A DNA stretch of 64,000 bases from an uncultured Spirochaetota bacterium (GTDB taxonomy: Bacteria > Spirochaetota > Spirochaetia > SZUA-6 > CAVTHK01), in NCBI GenBank assembly GCA_963734495.1, contig CAVTHK010000002.1:128001-192000 (forward strand), given 5' to 3'. Of the stretch, positions 12,487 through 47,640 are shown piece by piece. The notes below the pieces were generated by a model. That model had not been told where the DNA came from. It worked only from the letters and a program-made list of their open reading frames with translations, and did no database searches. The position numbers and the translations under genes are program-made. How positions within the stretch are numbered: position 1 is the stretch's first letter; every line of letters starts with the position of its first letter.

Positions 12487-14441
12487 TGCCGACCGTCAGC
12501 CTGACCGAGGTCTCGCACGCCTACGGGGCGCAGCTCGTCCTCGACCACGTGAGCCTGACACTGCGCGAGGGCGACCGCGTTGCGCTCGCCGGCGCCAACG
12601 GCAGCGGCAAGAGCACGTTGATGAAGGTCCTCGCCCGGCTGCTCGCGCCGGAAAGCGGCACCGTGATCTGGGAACGCGACGCGATGGTCTCCTATCTGCC
12701 GCAGTCCGGCATCAAGCTCTCCGGACGCAGCGTGCGGAGCGAGGCCGAGGAGGCCTTCGAGCGGTTCCACTCCCTCGAGGCGGAGCTGACCGCTCTGGAG
12801 GCGGCGCTCCATCGGGCCGGCTCCGGGGGCGAGGGCGATGCGGACCGGCTCGTGCGGCGGTACGCGCAGCTCGCCGAGCGCCGCTCGTCGGTGGGTTTCC
12901 TCGAGCCGCACGCGCGGGAGGAGGCGATGGAGCGGGTGCTCCGCGGCCTCGGCTTCGCCCGCGGGGATTTCGACCGACCGGTCGCGGAGCTCTCGAGCGG
13001 GTGGCAGATGCGCGTCGCGCTGGCGAAGACGCTGCTCGCGCAGCCCGACATCCTGCTGCTCGACGAGCCGACCAACTACCTGGACCTCGAGTCCCGGGAG
13101 TGGCTGCAGCAGTTCCTCTCCTCCTTTCGCGGCGGCCTTCTGATCGTGGCCCACGACCGCTTCTTCCTCGATCGCACGGTGTCGCGCGTCGCCGAGGTCT
13201 TTCTCGGCAGGCTCACCACCTACACCGGGAACTACACGCAGTACGAGGAGAGGCGGCAGGCCGAGCTGGGATACCTCATCGAGCGCTGGCGGCGGCAGCA
13301 GGAGGAGATCGCCCGGACGGAGATGTTCATCCGGCGGTTCCGCTACAACGCTTCCAAGGCCCGCATGGTGCAGAGCCGCATCAAGGCCCTGGAGAAGCTC
13401 GAGCGCATCGAGCTGCCCCCGAGCCTCAAGCGCGCGCACATCAGCTTTCCGCCTCCGCCGCACTCGGGGCGCGAGGTGCTCCGCGTCTCCGGCCTCGGCA
13501 AGAGCTACGGCGAGCTGCGGGTGCTCTCGGACCTCTCGCTCCTCGTGCACAGGGGGGAGAAGCTCGCGGTCGTCGGCGTCAACGGCGCCGGCAAGTCGAC
13601 GCTGCTGCGCCTGCTCGCGGGACGACTCGACCCGGACGCGGGCCAGGTCGTCCGCGGCAAGGACGTCGCGCCGGGCTTCTACTCGCAGGACGAGATCGAC
13701 ACGACGGAGACCGACGCGGTCATCGACGTCGTCGAGCGCATCGCCCCGACCGAAGTCGTGCCGAAGGTCCGCGAGCTGCTGGGGGCGTTCCTGTTCCGCG
13801 GGGACGAGGTGTACAAGCCGGCCTCCGTGCTGAGCGGCGGCGAGGCGAGCCGCCTCGCGCTGCTCAAGCTGCTCCTGCGGCCCGTCAATCTCCTGCTGCT
13901 GGACGAGCCCACCAATCACCTCGACCTGGCGACCAAGGACATCCTGCTCGACGCGCTGCGCACTTACCCCGGGACCGTGGTCTTCGTGTCCCACGACCGG
14001 GATTTCCTCGCCCAGCTCGCCACGCGCGTGCTGGAGCTCGAAGGCCACCGCGGGCGCGAGTTCCCGGGCGACTACGAGTACTACCGCAGCCGCAAAGCGG
14101 CCGAAGGCGACCAGGCCGACCCGCTGATCGCGCCCTCCGCACGCGCGGCCGCGAAGCCGGCGCCGGTCGAGGCGGCGTCCGCGCGCGACGAACGCGAGGA
14201 GTCCAAACGGCGGCGCACCGAGGAACGGCGCCTCCGCAAGGAAGAGGCCGAGGTCGTCGAGCGCCTGGAGACGCTGGAGCGGCAGCGGGCCTCGCTCGAG
14301 GAGATCCTCGGCCGCGAGGAGACCTGGCGCGACGGCGAGCGCATGAAGAAGATCAAAGTAAAGCTGGCCGAGAACCATGAGGAGCAGGCGAGGCTCGCCG
14401 GGCGCTGGCAGCAGATCGAGGAGCTGCTTGCCCACTCCTGA
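12486..14441 (+). CDS. ABC-F family ATP-binding protein (ribosome-associated)
   Basis: Two ABC domains (GANGSGKST / GVNGAGKST, LSSGW / LSGGE, LLLDEPTN twice), inter-domain linker, C-terminal coiled coil, no TM. Confidence 0.93.
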   Translation: MPTVSLTEVSHAYGAQLVLDHVSLTLREGDRVALAGANGSGKSTLMKVLARLLAPESGTVIWERDAMVSYLPQSGIKLSGRSVRSEAEEAFERFHSLEAELTALEAALHRAGSGGEGDADRLVRRYAQLAERRSSVGFLEPHAREEAMERVLRGLGFARGDFDRPVAELSSGWQMRVALAKTLLAQPDILLLDEPTNYLDLESREWLQQFLSSFRGGLLIVAHDRFFLDRTVSRVAEVFLGRLTTYTGNYTQYEERRQAELGYLIERWRRQQEEIARTEMFIRRFRYNASKARMVQSRIKALEKLERIELPPSLKRAHISFPPPPHSGREVLRVSGLGKSYGELRVLSDLSLLVHRGEKLAVVGVNGAGKSTLLRLLAGRLDPDAGQVVRGKDVAPGFYSQDEIDTTETDAVIDVVERIAPTEVVPKVRELLGAFLFRGDEVYKPASVLSGGEASRLALLKLLLRPVNLLLLDEPTNHLDLATKDILLDALRTYPGTVVFVSHDRDFLAQLATRVLELEGHRGREFPGDYEYYRSRKAAEGDQADPLIAPSARAAAKPAPVEAASARDEREESKRRRTEERRLRKEEAEVVERLETLERQRASLEEILGREETWRDGERMKKIKVKLAENHEEQARLAGRWQQIEELLAHS

Positions 14442-16513: not shown

Positions 16514-16598
16514 TCGCCGCACCGGCGCGGGAGGCCGCGCTGGTCAGCCCCCGCCGCTTTCTGCTATGCTTTCGCACGCCCGAGGTAACGACGCGAAC

Positions 16599-17664
16599 AT
16601 GTTCGAACAGAAGATCAAGGACGCCACCGACAGGTACGAGGCCGTGCAGGCCGAGCTGGCCGCGCCCGACATCACCCGCAACCAGAAGCGCTACCGCGAG
16701 CTGATGCAGGAGGCGAGCGGGCTGCGCGATCTGGTCGAGGCCGGCGTCCGCATGGAGCGCGTCGAGCGCGACCTCGCGGCGGCCCGCGAGATGGTCGAGA
16801 CGGCAAAGGAGAGCGACCTGCGCGAGCTCGCCCGGGAGGAGGCCCGCAGCCTCGAGGCGGCCCGGATGGGGCTCGAGGAGCAGATCAAGCTCCTGCTCAT
16901 CCCCAGGGACCCCCTGGACCTGCGCAACATCATCATGGAGATCAGGGCCGGCACCGGCGGCGAGGAGGCGGCGCTGTTCGCCGCCGACCTCTACCGCATG
17001 TACCAGCGTTATGCGGAAAACCGCGGCTGGCGGACCGAGCTGATCAGCGCCAGCGAGACGGAGATCGGCGGCTTCAAGGAAGTCATCTTCTCCGTGGCCG
17101 GGAAAGGACGTCTACGCCGACCTGCGCTACGAGAGCGGGGTGCACCGCGTGCAGCGAGTGCCCGCCACCGAGGCTCGGGCCGGATCCACACCTCGGCGGT
17201 GACCGTGGCCGTGCTCCCCGAGGCCGAGGAGACCGACATCGGATCCGGCCGGAGGACCTCAAGATCGACGTGTTCCGCTCCGAGCGGTCCCGGCGGGCAG
17301 AGCGTGAACACCACGGACTCGGCGGTGCGCGTCACGCACCTGCCCTCGGGCGTCGTGGTCATCTGCCAGGACGAGAAGAGCCAGCTGAAGAACAAGAACA
17401 AGGCGCTGCGCGTGCTGCGCGCCCGGCTGCTACGAGGCCGAGGAGCGGCGCAAGCAGGCCGAGCGGGCCGAGGAGCGGCGCTCGCAGATCGGCAGCGGCG
17501 ACCGCTCGGAGCGCATCCGCACGTACAACTTTCCGCAGAACCGCGTGACCGACCACAGGATCAACCTGACCCTCTACCGCCTCGACTCCATCATCGAAGG
17601 CGACCTCGCCGAGGTCATCGAGGCGCTCAGGCTCAGCGCGAGGGAGCAGCTGCTCAAGGCATGA
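16599..17664 (+). CDS. prfA: Peptide chain release factor 1; several apparent frameshifts (about 17100-17280, 17430)
   Basis: [28 protein letters not shown] (PxT), [35 protein letters not shown]. Confidence 0.93.
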
Positions 17665-41491: not shown

Positions 41492-42736
41492 CTACAGCGT
41501 CCCGGCCAGCTCGTCGAGACACCGGTCGACCCAGGGCCACGCCTCGGCGTAGTACACGTCGAGGACCGGCAGCAGCTCGAACAACGCTTCGCGGGTCCGC
41601 TGCTCCAGGTAGAGCACCTGGCCGAGGTAGAAGCGGCCGCGGGCCTCGAGATCGGCGGTGCGCCGGACGGAGAGGAAGTCGCGGAGCTGCTTTTCGGCCG
41701 CGCCGTTTCCCAGCGGGGGCTCCTCTCGCCGTTCTGGAACACGTCGCGGACGATCGACTGCAGGATCGACTCTTCGCCGCCCCCGCTCACCGCCCGGTCG
41801 ACGTCCAGCACGACGGGCTTCATGGACGTCCGGCCGCGGCGGGGGCAGGCCGGCGAGCAGCGCGGCCACGGCCTCCTCGGCTTGCGGCCCGAGCGCCCTG
41901 CGTTCCGGCAGCGGCTGCGCGGGCCCGATCTGCTCGCCCGAGTACACGCCCCGCTCCACCGCGACGAACGGCAGGGGGCGCGACCGGGATTCCCGCGCGG
42001 CGGCGGCCGCGACGCCCGCCGCCGACAGCGGCACGGTCGCGGGCGCCGTGGTGGCGTTGCTCCCGGCGACGAATCGAACCTGGCCGATCTTGGCCAGTTC
42101 CTCGTCGGCGACCGCGTAGTAGAAGCCGATCCCGGCGGGCGGGGCATCCTGGTAGAAGGTGGTGCCAGGCTCGAGGATCATCGCCACGGCGGCCGAAAGA
42201 TCCGCAAGGGCCGCGATGGGCGCGGTGTTGCGATAGAGGACCAGGGTGCGGGAGGGGCGGTCGGTCGTGAAGCTCACGCGGATTCCGGCGGGCGATGCCT
42301 GAGCGCGGATGCCGTCGATGCGCGCGGCCACCTGCTCCGGGCTGCCGACGTCCTCGATGGCGCACGGGGTGACGGTCTTGTTGCGGAACGCGACAAAGAC
42401 GTCGTAACGCCTGCCGCTCGCGTCGCTGGCCAGCACGGCGTAGAAGTAGGCCCGGGTGTCGGCAGGGTGGTCGGCGTAGGAGCCGGTTCCGTAAGGCACC
42501 TCGGCCACCTTCTGCGCCTTCGCGAAAGTTTCCGCGGTGATCTCTTCGGTGGAGCGGTAGACCGCGAGGGGCCCGCGGACGTCCGGCGAATCCCGCCAGG
42601 TGAGCACGACGGCCGTCGACTGGGCCCGCGCGTGCAGGAGCGACACGAACGGGGCCGTGACGTCCTGGGCCCGGGCGCCGCCGAGCGGCAGGAGAAGCGC
42701 TGCGACCAGAGCAGGCAGAAAGCGGGCGAACCTCAT
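41492..42736 (-). CDS. Secreted hypothetical protein (two beta-sandwich-like repeats plus a C-terminal TPR-like helix pair); compensating frameshifts near 41830 and 41720
   Basis: Signal peptide (ARA-Q); repeated VYRS..I / LYRNT.PI...YAV motifs; ARGRFYLGQ. The intervening segment reads better in the alternate frame (MKPVVLDVDR...). Confidence 0.7.
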   Translation of the reverse strand: MRFARFLPALVAALLLPLGGARAQDVTAPFVSLLHARAQSTAVVLTWRDSPDVRGPLAVYRSTEEITAETFAKAQKVAEVPYGTGSYADHPADTRAYFYAVLASDASGRRYDVFVAFRNKTVTPCAIEDVGSPEQVAARIDGIRAQASPAGIRVSFTTDRPSRTLVLYRNTAPIAALADLSAAVAMILEPGTTFYQDAPPAGIGFYYAVADEELAKIGQVRFVAGSNATTAPATVPLSAAGVAAAAARESRSRPLPFVAVERGVYSGEQIGPAQPLPERRALGPQAEEAVAALLAGLPPPRPDVHEARRAGRRPGGERGRRRVDPAVDRPRRVPERREEPPLGNGAAEKQLRDFLSVRRTADLEARGRFYLGQVLYLEQRTREALFELLPVLDVYYAEAWPWVDRCLDELAGTL

Positions 42737-42800
42737 GTCACTATACTAGTCGGCGCCGCCCGCCGGTGTCCATAGCGCCGCAACGGGCCGCAGCGGCCGT

Positions 42801-42830
42801 TTGACAGCGCCCGCGGAAACCCAATAGACT
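42801..42830 (+). promoter_or_regulatory. Sigma70 promoter for the cas2-like/prfB operon (leaderless)
   Basis: TTGACA(42801-42806)-18 nt-TAGACT(42825-42830), 7 nt before ATG 42838. Confidence 0.72.
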
Positions 42831-42837
42831 CCTTTTG

Positions 42838-43110
42838 ATGTACGTGGCGGTGTGCGTCGAGCTCGCCGGGGAGGATTCCCGGCGCGCCGCGACGGAGCTG
42901 CTGGCACAGTACGGGTTCAAGCGCGTGCTCGGCGGGCTCTTCGAGTCGTACACCGTTTCCGACGAGCAGCTGGCGCGGCTGAAGCACGACCTGGACCGGA
43001 CGACCGACTCCTACGATCGGGTCCGCTTCTACCAGTATCCGCTCGCCGACGCGCTCGTGATCACGGATCTCGAGGCGAAGAAATGGCGCCGCAAGAAGAT
43101 CGTCTTCTAG
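42838..43110 (+). CDS. Stand-alone Cas2/VapD-like small protein (90 aa)
   Basis: YVAVCVEL...LLAQYGFKRVLGGLFE...LARLKHDL...DRVRFY matches the Cas2 pattern (hhhYDI...L..YG.RVQ.SVFE...L...L...D.h.hY). No cas1 or array nearby. Confidence 0.75.
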   Translation: MYVAVCVELAGEDSRRAATELLAQYGFKRVLGGLFESYTVSDEQLARLKHDLDRTTDSYDRVRFYQYPLADALVITDLEAKKWRRKKIVF

Positions 43111-43158
43111 GGCCGGCGCGGTCCGCCGCTGAATCCCTTGCCTGTGGAGGTTGCGCAG

Positions 43159-44272
43159 TTGCTCGAAGAGTTGCAGACCCGGATCAGGAGCCTGGGCGAC
43201 CAGATAGACGAAACCTGGAGGCATCTTTGACCCCGAAAAGATCCAGGGTGAGATACGCGAGCTCGAGAAGAAGACGGCCGAGGAGGACTTCTGGTCCAAC
43301 AGGGAACGGGCCAGCGAGATCCTCGGCACGCTCAAGGAGCGAAAGCGCCGCCTCGATCCGTGGGCCGCGCTGAGGCAGAAGTACTCCGACCTCGCCGAGC
43401 TGTACTCCCTCGCCCTCGACGAAGCCGACCAGTCGGTCGAAGCGGAGATCTCGCGGGGTCTCGATGAGCTCGAGGCGACCTACGGCCGGATCAGGGTCCT
43501 CGAGTTCCTGTCGGACGAGCACGACGAGGCATCGACGTTTCTCACCATCCACGCGGGCGCCGGCGGGACCGAGGCGTGCGACTGGGCGGGCATGCTCCTG
43601 CGCATGTACACGCGGTGGGCCGAGCGTCAGGGCTACGAGGTCGAGATCGAGGACGCCCTCGAAGCCGAGGCCGGCTTCAAGTCGGTGACGGTGCTGATCC
43701 AGGGCGATTACGCTCACGGCTATCTCAAGGGGGAGTCGGGAGTGCACAGGCTCGTGCGCATTTCCCCATTCGACGCCAACAAGAGGCGGCATACGACCTT
43801 CGCCTCCGTCTACTGCTCTCCCGAGCTGGAGGACGACGCGGCGATCGAGATCAAGCCCGAGGACGTGAGGGTCGACACGTTCCGGGCGAGCGGCGCTGGC
43901 GGGCAGAAGGTGAACAAGACGGAGTCCGCCGTCCGCATGACCCACATCCCCACGGGGATCGTGGTCCAGTGCCAGAACGAGCGCAGCCAGCACAAGAACC
44001 GCGCCATGGCGATGAAGATGCTCAAGAGCCGGCTGTACGAGTACGACCGCATGCAGAAAGACAAGGAACGGGACAAGATAGAGAGTGAGAAGAAGGACAT
44101 CTCGTGGGGCAATCAGATCCGTTCCTACGTGTTTCAGCCGTACACCATGGTCAAGGACCATCGCACGAAGCACGAGACCGGCAACGTGCAGGCCGTCATG
44201 GACGGCGGGATCGACGCGTTCATCGAGGAGTACCTGAAGCTTGCCTGGACCCTCAAGCAGAAGGCGAACTGA
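43159..44272 (+). CDS. prfB: Peptide chain release factor 2 with programmed +1 frameshift
   Basis: TTG start with GGAGG RBS; 23 codons to CTT-TGA-C; the +1 frame carries GAGGTEACDW, ISPF and GAGGQ. Confidence 0.97.
43217..43231 (+). promoter_or_regulatory. RF2 autoregulatory +1 frameshift cassette
   Basis: GGAGG-CAT-CTT-TGA-C: an internal SD 3 nt upstream of the slippery CTT TGA C. Confidence 0.95.
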
Positions 44273-45680
44273 AGCCGGCCTGCTCATCCTCCTCTTCGCC
44301 GCCGGGCTCGCCTCCGCGGCCGACGACCTGAGCGGCGATCTGCCCAAGGCGTGGAAGGTGGGCTTCGCCGCCTGGGGCGGCGCCGGGCTCGAGCCGCAGG
44401 ACGAGTACCTCAAGTTCAGCCTTGCGCTCGAGCTCCGCGATCGCCTGCTCGCCGCGCGGGAGCGCGATCTGGGGGCCCAGGAGCGCGAGGCGTTCGCCCG
44501 GCGGCTGGCGCGCTCCAAGGTCGAGGCACTCGAGGCGCAGCTGCGGGACACCAACCGCGCGCGCGACGACCTCGTCTTCAAGCAGCTCCCCGACAGCGAG
44601 CGCGACGCGGCGCTGGCGCCCCTCGACGCGAAGCAGAGCGAGCTGCTCGCCCGCATCGCGCTTTTTGAGCGCGACCTTCCCCATCTCGCCGTGCTTCCCC
44701 CCGCGATGCCTCTCGCCTACGAGCCCGCCGACCTGATCGATCCGCCCGCCTACTCGGCGGCGGAGGCCGCGCGCAAGGCGGGCGTGGACCTTCTCGTCTG
44801 GGGACGCCTCGAGCCCGTGCAGGGCTACCTGTACTGGCGGGTGGCCTGCTACAGCGTGCTGCTCGACCGCGAGCTGTTCGCCGCCGAGCAGGTCTCCGCG
44901 CCCGAGGCCGTCGCGGCCGCGGTCGAATCGGCGGTCGGCGGGCTCGCGGAGGCGCTGCTGGGGCGGCCCTGGTCGGCGCTGACCGTCGTCCCGCAGCCTG
45001 CGGACGCCGCGGTCCGCGTCGACGGCAACGCGCAGGGCGGCGGCACGGTGACGCTTCCCTTTCTCGACCCCGGGCCCCACCACGTCGAGGTCTCGTACGA
45101 AGGCTACCAGACCTACGACGAGACGGTGCTGCTGGAGCCTTCGGCCACGCGGCGGCTCGAGGCGGCGCTCACGGCGCTGCCCGCCCGCCCCTTCACGCTC
45201 GCGAGCACGCCGCCCGGGGCGCTCGTGTATCGCGATTCGCTGTACGTGGGGGTCACGCCGCTCGACCTGATGCTGCCGCCCGGCAGCATCGGGACGTATC
45301 GGCTCGTCACGGAGGGCTACTTCGACCTCTACGAGACGATCAAGGCGGACGACGTTTCTCGCATCGATGCGGTCCTCACGCGCAAGCTCGTGGACCCGAC
45401 CGAGTGGCAGGAGATCAAACGCAAGCGGTTCTACCACTCCCTCGGCGCCCTCGCGCTGTCGGTGCCGATCTCGGTCGTGAGCTACGCGGTCGCCCTCGAC
45501 GCCGCGGTCGCGCGGGAGAACACGATCGCGGGAACGCCGGAGTACGACAGGCTGACGCGGCGGGCGACCATCGGCTACGCGCTGTACCTCGGCGGCATCT
45601 TCGTCAGCGCCGTGCTGGGGATCAACATGGTTCGCGACCTGCGGGAGTACGTCCGCTACGCGGACAACCCCGAGTTCTAG
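44241..45680 (+). CDS. PEGA-domain membrane protein (true start uncertain, probably near 44270)
   Basis: Signal-like LLILLFAAGLASA, coiled coil, two PEGA-like repeats (PADAAVRVDG...PGPHHVEVSYEGY; STPPGALVYRD.LYVGVTPL), two C-terminal TM helices. Confidence 0.78.
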   Translation: MPGPSSRRRTEAGLLILLFAAGLASAADDLSGDLPKAWKVGFAAWGGAGLEPQDEYLKFSLALELRDRLLAARERDLGAQEREAFARRLARSKVEALEAQLRDTNRARDDLVFKQLPDSERDAALAPLDAKQSELLARIALFERDLPHLAVLPPAMPLAYEPADLIDPPAYSAAEAARKAGVDLLVWGRLEPVQGYLYWRVACYSVLLDRELFAAEQVSAPEAVAAAVESAVGGLAEALLGRPWSALTVVPQPADAAVRVDGNAQGGGTVTLPFLDPGPHHVEVSYEGYQTYDETVLLEPSATRRLEAALTALPARPFTLASTPPGALVYRDSLYVGVTPLDLMLPPGSIGTYRLVTEGYFDLYETIKADDVSRIDAVLTRKLVDPTEWQEIKRKRFYHSLGALALSVPISVVSYAVALDAAVARENTIAGTPEYDRLTRRATIGYALYLGGIFVSAVLGINMVRDLREYVRYADNPEF

Positions 45681-45736
45681 ACCGGCGCCGGTGCCGGGGC
45701 GGGGCGGCACGCCCGGCAGCCGATGAGGAGGAGCGT

Positions 45737-46612
45737 TTGTTCGAGAGGAAACCGCACGGCCTCGCGGCCCGCCTCGGCGCCCTGCTGGGCATCGGGAAGC
45801 GCGACGAGCAGTTCTTCGAGCAGCTCGAAGACGCGCTGATCGAGGCGGACCTCGGGGCCCAGGCGGCGCTGGAGATCGTGGATCGCCTGAGGAAGGACGG
45901 CGGCGGCGGCCCGCGCGACCTCGCCGGTCGCGTCAAGGAGATGCTGCTCGGCGATCTGCGGGCGATCGCGCCGGCACCCGACGGCCGGGGGCCCGGCCTC
46001 ATGCTCGTGCTCGGCGTCAACGGCGTCGGCAAGACCACCACCGTCGCGAAGCTCGCCGCCTTTTACAGGCGCGCGCACGGCATGCAGGACGTCCTGCTGT
46101 GCGCGGCCGACACCTTCCGCGCCGCCGCCATCGACCAGCTCAGGGTGCTCGGCGAGCGGCTCGAGCTGCGGGTGGTGAGCCAGCAGCCCGGCTCCGATCC
46201 GGGGGCCGTCATCTACGACGCCATCACCAGCGCCCGGGCCCGCTCGACGCCGCTGATCGTGGCCGACACCGCGGGCCGCATGCACAGCAGGGTCGATCTC
46301 GTGCGCGAGCTCGAGAAGATCGACCGGGTCGTTCGCAGCCGGCTGGGCGGGGGCTGGTATCACAAATCGCTCGTCATCGACGCGACCACGGGCCAGAACG
46401 CCCTGCAGCAGGCCGAGGTGTTCCACCAGGCCATCGGCATCGACTCCGTGATCGTCGCCAAGAGCGACTCGACGGCCAAGGGGGGGATCGTCGTGCCCAT
46501 CTCGCGCTCCCTTCACCTTCCTTTCTCCTTCGTGGGGGTCGGGGAACGGCTCGAGGACCTGGTGCCGTTCGACGCCGGGGCCTATCTCGACGCGCTGCTG
46601 GGGCTCGCGTGA
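45737..46612 (+). CDS. ftsY: Signal recognition particle receptor FtsY (short NG-only type)
   Basis: [60 protein letters not shown] with TTG start. Confidence 0.95.
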
Positions 46613-47640
46613 AAGCCCCCGCCGTCGCATCCCTCTGCTGCCTCCTCGCGCTGGCGGCCGCGACCGGCGGCCGCGCGGATGCCGGGGGGGAGGACTATCT
46701 CTCGAACGCAATCGGGATGCGGCTCGGCCCGGCCACCGACGCGGCCGGGTACGTGCTCCAGGTGCACTCCGCCGATGGCACGGAGGAGGATCGGCTCCTC
46801 GACCAGGGCGCGGAGGTCCGCCGGACGGTCCGCGTGCGCAACGCCGCGGACGGAAGCACGACGGAAACGGTGTACGAGCAGGGCGCCGTCACCGCGACCC
46901 GGTCCTATGACGCCGGCGGGAGGCTCGTCGAAGAGAAGACCGCCGAAGGCGCGAGGCTCTTCCACTACCGCGGCGGCGAGCTGGAGAGCATGGAGGTGTC
47001 GGGCTCGGACGGGAAGCCGCTGTACCGCGAGCGCTACGCCTACACCTCGCGCGGCCGGCTGCGCGAGGCCGAGCGCGCCTACGCCGACGGCAGCCGCTCG
47101 GTCTCCTCCTTCCTGTTCGCCGAGGGCCGCCTGATGTCCGAGCGGCTGGCGGCGGACGAGCGCATCCTCACGGTGCGGTTCGACGGATCGGGGCGGCTGG
47201 CCGCGGAATCGGAGGCGCAGGGCGACACGCTCGTCTGGGAGAGGACGCGCCGCTACGACGCGGCGAGCGGCGCTCTGGCCGAGACCGTCGAACGGCGCAA
47301 GGACTACACCGTGCGCAGGCTCTACGGCGCCGGGGAACGACTCGCGCAGGAGGAGAGGACCGGCTCCGGCGCGTACCGCAGCTCCTACAGCTACGACTCC
47401 GAGGGACGGCAGGTCCGCCTGCGGCGCATCGGGAGCATCGGCACGGAGGAGTGGCAGACCGCGTACGACGACAAGGGCAACGTCGCGCGCGAGACCTACC
47501 TGGTCCGGGGCCTCGTCCAGCGGGTGCGCGTGCACACCGGCGAGCGCGAGTGGTACGACGACCTGTACCATGACGGCAAGCCCGTGCTCCGCGTGACGTA
47601 TCGCAACGACGCGAAAATCGGCGAGGAGCGTCTCGAGTGA
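46609..47640 (+). CDS. Secreted hypothetical protein with YD/RHS-like beta-hairpin repeats
   Basis: Signal peptide; repeats such as SYDAGGRL, AYTSRGRL, RFDGSGRL, RYDAASG, SYDSEGRQ, AYDDKGNV; GTGA overlaps on both sides. Confidence 0.75.
   Translation: MKAPAVASLCCLLALAAATGGRADAGGEDYLSNAIGMRLGPATDAAGYVLQVHSADGTEEDRLLDQGAEVRRTVRVRNAADGSTTETVYEQGAVTATRSYDAGGRLVEEKTAEGARLFHYRGGELESMEVSGSDGKPLYRERYAYTSRGRLREAERAYADGSRSVSSFLFAEGRLMSERLAADERILTVRFDGSGRLAAESEAQGDTLVWERTRRYDAASGALAETVERRKDYTVRRLYGAGERLAQEERTGSGAYRSSYSYDSEGRQVRLRRIGSIGTEEWQTAYDDKGNVARETYLVRGLVQRVRVHTGEREWYDDLYHDGKPVLRVTYRNDAKIGEERLE

Follow-up and report, generated by a model that had tools for sequence, protein, structure and literature searches.

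Cas2 is the scaffold of spacer integration in CRISPR immunity. Here we examined a cas2-like gene that lies ahead of prfB, the gene for release factor 2 (RF2), in a 64,000-nucleotide (nt) stretch of the genome of an uncultured Spirochaetota bacterium (assembly GCA_963734495.1, contig CAVTHK010000002.1, positions 128,001 to 192,000); this whole stretch is referred to as the window, and its first letter is position 1. A preliminary description had proposed that the gene encodes a domesticated, non-immune Cas2 homologue with a leaderless start, that it heads the prfB operon, and that it may act in translation termination or quality control or modulate the RF2 frameshift. Canonical Cas2 proteins (PF09827; structures 4qr0, 1zpw, 4es2 and 4mak) share with the protein of the window an acidic residue that ends strand 1, 'FE' and 'D-S-x-x-R-x-Y'-like motifs and a length of about 90 amino acids (aa). 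In contrast to them, the family described here has no cas1, other cas genes or array nearby, forms a separate clade, is vertically inherited and slow-evolving, sits in a housekeeping cluster with prfB and possesses invariant motifs of its own, Y-Q-Y/F-P and K-K-W-R.

Why most Cas2 proteins retain a nuclease site was presented as an open question (PMC8987985). BPSL1038 of Burkholderia pseudomallei is a Cas2/VapD-like nuclease from a CRISPR-free genome, carries a D11(X20)SST motif and was reported as an endonuclease of double-stranded DNA that needs no divalent ion (PMC10491678). Like the spirochaete family it has the Cas2 fold, is conserved in its lineage without a CRISPR role and keeps the Cas2-equivalent Asp; nevertheless it belongs to a different family, no prfB link is described for it, and it was absent among the sequence matches of the cas2-like protein. 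VapD toxins (Haemophilus influenzae VapXD, structures 6zn8 and 6zi1; Helicobacter pylori VapD) have the same fold as well and can occur independently of CRISPR, but they are usually paired with an antitoxin or patchily distributed, whereas the cas2-like gene is partnerless and vertically inherited. In Legionella pneumophila, cas2 is required for amoeba infection (PMC3604779); this too is a Cas2 whose role goes beyond immunity, although its gene sits in a II-B CRISPR-Cas locus. Leptospira interrogans Cas2 is encoded in a type I-C locus without an array (PMC9510766; structure 7f84) and is likewise array-less, from a spirochaete and a fold match of the cas2-like protein (Z 8.8), yet it remains in a cas operon. 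It does not belong to the cas2-like family, for which two large families in the survey of the phylum gave no match (0/45 and 0/38). No example among VapD, BPSL1038, Legionella and Leptospira both belongs to a housekeeping cluster and is inherited vertically across a whole phylum. In the open literature searched (supplements, possible gene lists, outside search) no description of the cas2-like family or of a Cas2-prfB link was found, and the main text of a paper on spirochaete signature proteins (PMC3726837) contains neither 'Cas2' nor 'CRISPR'. Free or repurposed Cas2-like proteins are already known; what appears to be new here is a CRISPR-independent, vertically inherited spirochaete Cas2 family that stands ahead of prfB in Spirochaetia.

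The whole analysis is based on comparative evidence. Translation of the window returned a 90-codon open reading frame (ORF) with its stop codon (Table 1), the same protein as in the preliminary description. Its codon usage looks core-like, as had been noted, with a G+C content at third codon positions of 0.92 compared to 0.87-0.94 in five neighbouring genes. The Pfam profile PF09827 (CRISPR_Cas2) matched residues 1-66 of the protein with 33 bits, above the cut-off of 23.8 bits (expect value, E, 7.1e-8), and the same profile was matched by 13 of 20 orthologues at E <= 0.01. Of the PADLOC models, the general Cas2 one scored 32.5 bits, and Cas2_IIIa (type III-A) matched the whole length of the protein at 29.8 bits. 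The ORF is unbroken and full-length relative to all its orthologues, and an Rfam search of positions 42500-43500 returned nothing at E <= 1.

The AlphaFold model built from 20 orthologues (predicted local distance difference test, pLDDT, 92.8; predicted template modelling score, pTM, 0.81) has the order strand-helix-strand-strand-helix-strand, followed by two extra strands. In the Foldseek comparison with the PDB, ranks 1-12 were Cas2 chains, rank 13 was VapD and the remaining rows listed were Cas2 or VapD, with TM scores of 0.5-0.7 and identities of up to 30%. VIA-align likewise gave Z 9-11 against solved Cas2 structures over 66-84 aligned residues, the top 36 rows being Cas2 or Cas2-3; H. 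influenzae VapD followed with Z 7.8-8.6, and unrelated ferredoxin-like folds scored below that. The Pfam match and these structural rows are the outcome of the profile and fold searches by which the preliminary description had proposed to check its Cas2 homologue, and they agree with it. Against solved Cas2 chains the family profile produced weak sequence matches (E 0.01-0.03), in which position 8 of the family lies under the strand-1 Asp of the Cas2 'YD' and the family's 'FE(S)' under the Cas2 'FE'; the Cas2-like motifs had thus been read correctly from the window protein. Position 8 is acidic in 39 of 39 family members (D in 31, E in 8, the window protein having E). Residues E36, L45, K49, D60, R63, Y65, Q66, P68 and W83 are invariant in these 39 members, D57 and K82 are almost so, and this set covers the equivalents of the acidic, 'FE' and 'D-S-x-x-R-x-Y' motifs of Cas2. 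Taken together, the cas2-like protein has the sequence motifs of Cas2 and, in the predicted model, its fold. The core of the protein is acidic and its C-terminal hairpin basic; in the model the basic K-K-W-R motif forms the turn of a confident beta-hairpin and no free tail. This residue pattern suggests a metal- and nucleic-acid-binding enzyme of the Cas2/VapD kind rather than a passive scaffold. Four relatives (P0037, P0042, P0196 and P0197) carry basic C-terminal tails, rich in Ala, Pro and Lys, of 30-45 residues beyond the conserved core. A search for longer, possibly fused forms yielded two matches among 8000 candidates scored, a weak result, and both proved to be the 90-aa core, lengthened upstream by a miscall and followed by a basic tail.

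The family is narrowly distributed. A search of 5.8 billion proteins returned 29 relatives, several of them named 'CRISPR-associated protein Cas2' by the Joint Genome Institute (JGI), and an exhaustive HMMER search over 1.84 billion representatives gave 67 matches at E <= 1e-3, of which those under about 40 bits are ordinary Cas2 proteins with YDI and RVQKSVFE motifs. Exactly one copy was found in 32 of 41 related genomes. In a survey of the phylum, 42 of 301 genomes matched at E <= 0.01, 39 of these at E <= 1e-23, and several large families had no match (0/45, 0/38 and 0/17). A scan of named records identified 74 loci, all but one labelled Spirochaetota and the remaining one labelled 'bacterium', from the Spirochaetales, Spirochaetaceae, Marispirochaeta, Rectinemataceae, Breznakiellaceae and Treponemataceae. 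By exact look-ups, cultured species are represented by Treponema denticola, whose orthologue AAS12560.1 is a 'CRISPR-associated protein Cas2' in UniRef and a 'hypothetical protein' at NCBI, and by T. succinifaciens (AEB14996.1) and T. socranskii. In total, full-length orthologues with 34-90% identity and conserved start, stop and motifs occur in more than 100 loci, AT-rich genomes included.

In a phylogenetic tree, from which one Treponema-type row (L106) was left out, 39 family rows and 11 canonical Cas2 rows fell on opposite sides of a branch supported at 100/98; the prfB-linked rows formed one clade (96/86), sister to a clade of nine rows from another class (98/94). Across 18 loci, pairwise distances of the cas2-like protein followed those of RF2 with a Mantel r of 0.78, a value reached in none of 2000 permutations, which is in favour of vertical inheritance. 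The mean p-distance was 0.44 for the cas2-like protein and 0.34 for RF2, the former thus being slightly more divergent. As judged from these searches, the distances and the tree, the family is Spirochaetota-restricted and cleanly apart from canonical Cas2, and its gene is single-copy, vertically inherited and evolving about as slowly as RF2. Second, weak profile matches (E 3e-4 to 1e-3, positions 1-67) occur in Treponema-type genomes that also hold a prfB-linked copy, at G225:C1:82051-82260, G235:C1:1737755-1737952, G280:C1:2784325-2784522 and G192:C16:47940-48137; these are probably ordinary Cas2 proteins of CRISPR loci.

The lack of a CRISPR system, claimed earlier for the window, holds there and was extended to the genome. 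No Cas1 scored above the cut-off in the 5.38-Mb assembly, which is 83% complete (best score 12.1 bits). The window contains no CRISPR array, just three short tandem repeats, and in the whole genome a crude repeat finder proposed seven array candidates, all of which turned out to be simple tandem repeats whose units are nearly the same. Two arrays built from a 48-nt tandem repeat lie at G000:C1:335607-335810 (five near-identical units) and C1:382388-382560 (four units). The neighbours of the cas2-like gene are prfB and a divergently oriented gene without a Pfam match; neither cas1 nor another cas gene is nearby. Cas1 was absent from 26 of 32 related carrier genomes and found in the other six; it was also found in eight of nine related non-carrier genomes. 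As these genomes are related to one another, no statistics were drawn from the counts. The features of an adaptation module, namely a cas1 neighbour, a cas operon, an array and a match to the NCBIfam equivalog TIGR01573, are all missing from the cas2-like gene. By these comparisons the protein is a member of the Cas2 superfamily, independent of CRISPR and under strong constraint.

In class Spirochaetia the gene is linked to prfB. RF2 is encoded downstream on the same strand in all of the first 20 loci, and each of them contains the frameshift motif CTTTGA. After addition of the 74 named-record loci, some of which are duplicates, this arrangement was found in 92 of 94; the remaining two stop 221 and 395 nt past the ORF, yet include CTTTGA. 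Among 20 extra loci from the phylum survey, prfB was downstream in 11/11 of Treponema type. Between the cas2-like stop and the chosen prfB start lie 24 nt in the median, at most 20 nt in 35 and at most 50 nt in 64 of 85 unique loci. Of 52 loci of at least 8 kb, all 52 have prfB, 49 have ftsY, 45 a PEGA-domain protein and 44 the divergent gene upstream, in accordance with the proposal that the cas2-like gene heads the prfB cluster. Thus, in the gene orders compared, it is the first gene of a cluster cas2-like, prfB, PEGA protein, ftsY in Spirochaetia, including T. denticola, T. succinifaciens and T. socranskii. The earlier observation of a 48-nt gap to prfB without a terminator holds if prfB starts at TTG 43159, which is most likely its start: the codon lies 8 nt past a GGAGG, and the orthologue in locus L003 begins at the corresponding ATG. 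No terminator-like site was detected in 42600-44400, hence none inside the cas2-like ORF either. Given the short spacers and the lack of a terminator or second promoter between the two genes in the window, we infer that one transcript covers both the cas2-like gene and prfB.

The promoter reported earlier, TTGACA-18-TAGACT, matches the consensus in 10 of 12 positions, and its -10 hexamer ends 7 nt upstream of the cas2-like ATG. It is the sole promoter-like site on the + strand within 42600-44400, where both strands together hold two such sites compared to 0.1 expected from shuffled sequences. The second belongs to the divergent upstream gene: TGGACA-18-TAGTAT (42772-42743) ends 6 nt ahead of that gene's own ATG, again a leaderless-type layout. 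We compared unique orthologous loci, of which 75 were retained after duplicates had been removed and three loci dropped whose aligned first codon was no start codon. A -35/-10 pair with at least 9 of 12 matches was present in 67/75, in the pattern TTGACA-17/18-TAnnnT; the -10 element ended 5-9 nt ahead of the start codon in 64 loci; in the other 11 the distance was 10-12 nt. A Shine-Dalgarno-like word occurred in six of the 75. As the geometry of the promoter is conserved, the predicted leaderless or near-leaderless state of the messenger should be conserved too, and the cas2-like mRNA in Spirochaetia is predicted to be leaderless or nearly so. For another spirochaete, Borrelia burgdorferi, leaderless mRNAs are on record, with 85 having leaders shorter than 10 nt (PMC5314773). 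The leaderless start proposed for the gene is a prediction whose geometry is conserved, but it is no distinction: in its own genome 80 of 633 promoter-like sites have the ATG of a frame of at least 120 codons 5-9 nt downstream, the frequency of such ATGs peaking at 16 per nt (top at 6-7 nt) compared to 1-6 per nt elsewhere, and the divergent gene shares the layout. In soil metatranscriptomes, two runs contained 0.08 and 0.05 of the words sampled. A 246-nt contig of run X2 spans 42933-43110 with six differences; only short contigs of relatives fit, and contigs of an RNA library demonstrate neither transcription nor a start site nor an operon. The junction between the cas2-like gene and prfB was bridged by none of the fitting contigs from the two runs.

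What does the protein do? We lean, with moderate confidence, towards reading the ORF as a genuine gene whose product is a domesticated Cas2 paralogue working outside CRISPR immunity. Like other free Cas2/VapD proteins, this product would form a dimer, hold a metal by the acidic residue at which strand 1 ends, and bind or cleave nucleic acid, with RNA the likeliest target. Features in line with such a role are the always acidic position 8, three invariant residues (E36, D60 and R63), the basic hairpin with K-K-W-R and the basic tails that some members have; the nuclease activity derived from the conserved residues is putative. That the target is RNA, or that the protein is linked to termination or to the rescue of ribosomes, is suggested by the operon only; speculatively, the substrate would lie in translation termination or ribosome quality control. 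In its strongest form this proposal states that a Cas2 fold was recruited early in spirochaetes into the core translation machinery, to serve as an RNase or RNA-binding partner of RF2 in termination or in the rescue of stalled ribosomes, expressed from the leaderless first cistron of the prfB operon, and in this form we hold it to be unlikely. A predicted complex pairing RF2 (post-frameshift residues; alignment of 18 rows) with the cas2-like protein in two copies scored 0.01 compared to a mark of 0.32 and was used neither for nor against binding.

Several results weigh against a specific tie to RF2 or, in part, against the Cas2 assignment itself. The protein missed the threshold of TIGR01573 (14.9 vs 24.5 bits), and the Foldseek E-values were merely 1.5e-3 and weaker. 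Moreover, a PF09827 scan of the whole genome did not report the ORF at E <= 1, which conflicts with the 33-bit match of the protein and is attributed to the first-look filter of the scan. In the AT-rich second class (records such as 'Spirochaetes bacterium GWF1_31_7'), the orthologues are clear (hidden Markov model E about 1e-24 to 1e-27, with a K-W-K-R motif), yet none of the nine loci has prfB in the 2.5 kb taken to each side, three of these loci being shortened by contig ends. The genes there carry GGAG-type Shine-Dalgarno sites, and their neighbours vary (a methyltransferase, DUF3047, 7TM-GGDEF proteins, OmpA and oligopeptidase F, PepF). A survey across Spirochaetota of cas2-like/prfB linkage independent of cas1 had been suggested; the linkage is found in every sufficiently long Spirochaetia locus but not in the second class. 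Since the second-class clade is sister to the prfB-linked one, the linkage either originated or was retained a single time, in class Spirochaetia. Furthermore, one family has no cas2-like gene, with 0/6 genomes positive by single-protein search and 0/5 by profile, four of these being single-contig assemblies. Its prfB retains the in-frame CTTTGA in 4/4 loci examined, and no remnant of the gene lies upstream of prfB in these four. A required role as modulator of the RF2 frameshift, one of the functions first suggested, is therefore unlikely. In a fifth non-carrier genome no RF2 was seen at all, so the absence there is probably an assembly gap. Leaderless-type starts, being common in the genome, are not special to this gene, and the divergent upstream gene is also kept in place in 44 of 52 loci, so that part of the prfB linkage may be plain gene order. 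Overall, the observation in the preliminary description is confirmed and its interpretation partly supported.

A possible, although less likely, alternative is that the same domesticated paralogue stands beside prfB by inherited gene order only and acts on something outside translation, for example on DNA (repair or the nucleoid), or as a regulator. The unlinked second-class orthologues, the family that lost the gene with its prfB frameshift unchanged and the equally fixed divergent gene all agree with it, as do the DNases among the solved Cas2 relatives (by title) and BPSL1038. However, the link is present in every Spirochaetia locus with enough sequence although orthologues are just 40-57% identical, and the spacers of 1-20 nt in 35/85 loci are short. 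Gene order seldom outlasts such divergence outside operons, which weighs against inherited order. Translation would also be the site of action if the protein were an RF2 cofactor or alternative rescue factor that brings RF2 to stalled ribosomes through the basic K-K-W-R segment. ArfA and BrfA, small lineage-restricted proteins that recruit RF2, would be the precedent, and the small size of the protein, its conserved basic motif with an invariant Trp and its place next to prfB fit. Yet the motif is modelled as the turn of a hairpin and not as a free tail, the ORF has no internal terminator-like site that would give a non-stop mRNA, the genome already has a small, possibly ArfB-like RF-1-domain ORF, and the second-class orthologues are not linked to prfB; we therefore consider this improbable.

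The remaining explanations concern the nature of the gene itself. Cas2 and VapD are related (PMC8987985), and the fold shared with H. influenzae VapD would fit a VapD-like toxin that belongs to a toxin-antitoxin or addiction module, but no conserved small partner ORF accompanies the gene, whose neighbours are the divergent 414-aa gene and prfB. With its single copy, vertical descent, slow evolution and no mobile-element context seen, a toxin is very improbable. Even less credence is due to a working adaptation Cas2 that serves a distant cas1. Such a protein would pass the Pfam Cas2 cut-off, as this one does, and Cas1 is present in the six carriers mentioned; nevertheless the genome has no detected Cas1 or array, the other 26 carriers have no Cas1, and the family is a clade separate from canonical Cas2 that falls short of TIGR01573. 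Finally, many long spurious ORFs arise in high-GC DNA, but a chance frame is refuted by the full-length orthologues described above and has practically no probability. We thus return to the domesticated paralogue outside CRISPR immunity as the preferred reading.

Because the family retains the nuclease site, has no CRISPR partner, shows RF2-like constraint and occurs in cultivable Treponema, it offers a clean system to study the Cas2 active site alone. The finding also corrects the database annotation of these genes, whose public label 'CRISPR-associated protein Cas2' could lead to too many orphan cas genes being counted in spirochaetes. Were the RF2 link functional, it would point to an as yet unknown factor of translation termination in the phylum to which oral and gut Treponema belong, and a role in translation, if true, would make the protein the first Cas2 relative with such a housekeeping function.

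Table 1. Positions of the cas2-like gene and neighbouring features in the window.
Feature	Position	Strand	Description
Sigma-70-type promoter	42801-42830	+	TTGACA 42801-42806, 18-nt spacer, TAGACT 42825-42830; 10/12 match; no Shine-Dalgarno site
cas2-like gene	42838-43110	+	90 aa; residues 1-68 Cas2 core, 69-90 family-specific beta-hairpin with conserved K-K-W-R
cas2-like/prfB spacer	43111-43158	+	48 nt; carries prfB Shine-Dalgarno GGAGG 43146-43150; no terminator- or promoter-like site
prfB frame 0	43159-43231	+	TTG, 22 codons, classical programmed +1 frameshift CTT TGA C 43225-43231; internal GGAGG ahead
prfB +1 frame	43229-44272	+	347 aa and stop; PCRF PF03462 182.6 bits, RF-1 PF00472 155.8 bits
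PEGA-domain protein	44241-45680	+	479 aa; PF08308 67.7 bits; conserved downstream cluster member
ftsY (signal recognition particle receptor)	45404-46612	+	PF00448 208 bits; frame as listed, true start probably further downstream
Divergent upstream gene	41492-42736 (with promoter to 42772)	-	414 aa; no Pfam match

Downstream of ftsY, the frame 46099-47640 (+) has an RHS-repeat match of 31.2 bits; it was found in one of 52 related loci and is thus not conserved. The window also holds a prfA (RF1) and prmC-like frame at 16566-17560 (+) with several frame breaks, and the assembly may accordingly contain indel errors. An intact copy of prfA, 97-99% identical, lies on the 17-kb contig C14 around 13860-14189. 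The breaks are either assembly indel errors, strain variants or signs of a decayed duplicate. The genome also encodes RF1 and one more small RF-1-domain ORF, a 171-aa frame with an RF-1-domain match of 54.7 bits at G000:C9:229901-230266 (L127), possibly an ArfB-like peptidyl-tRNA hydrolase.

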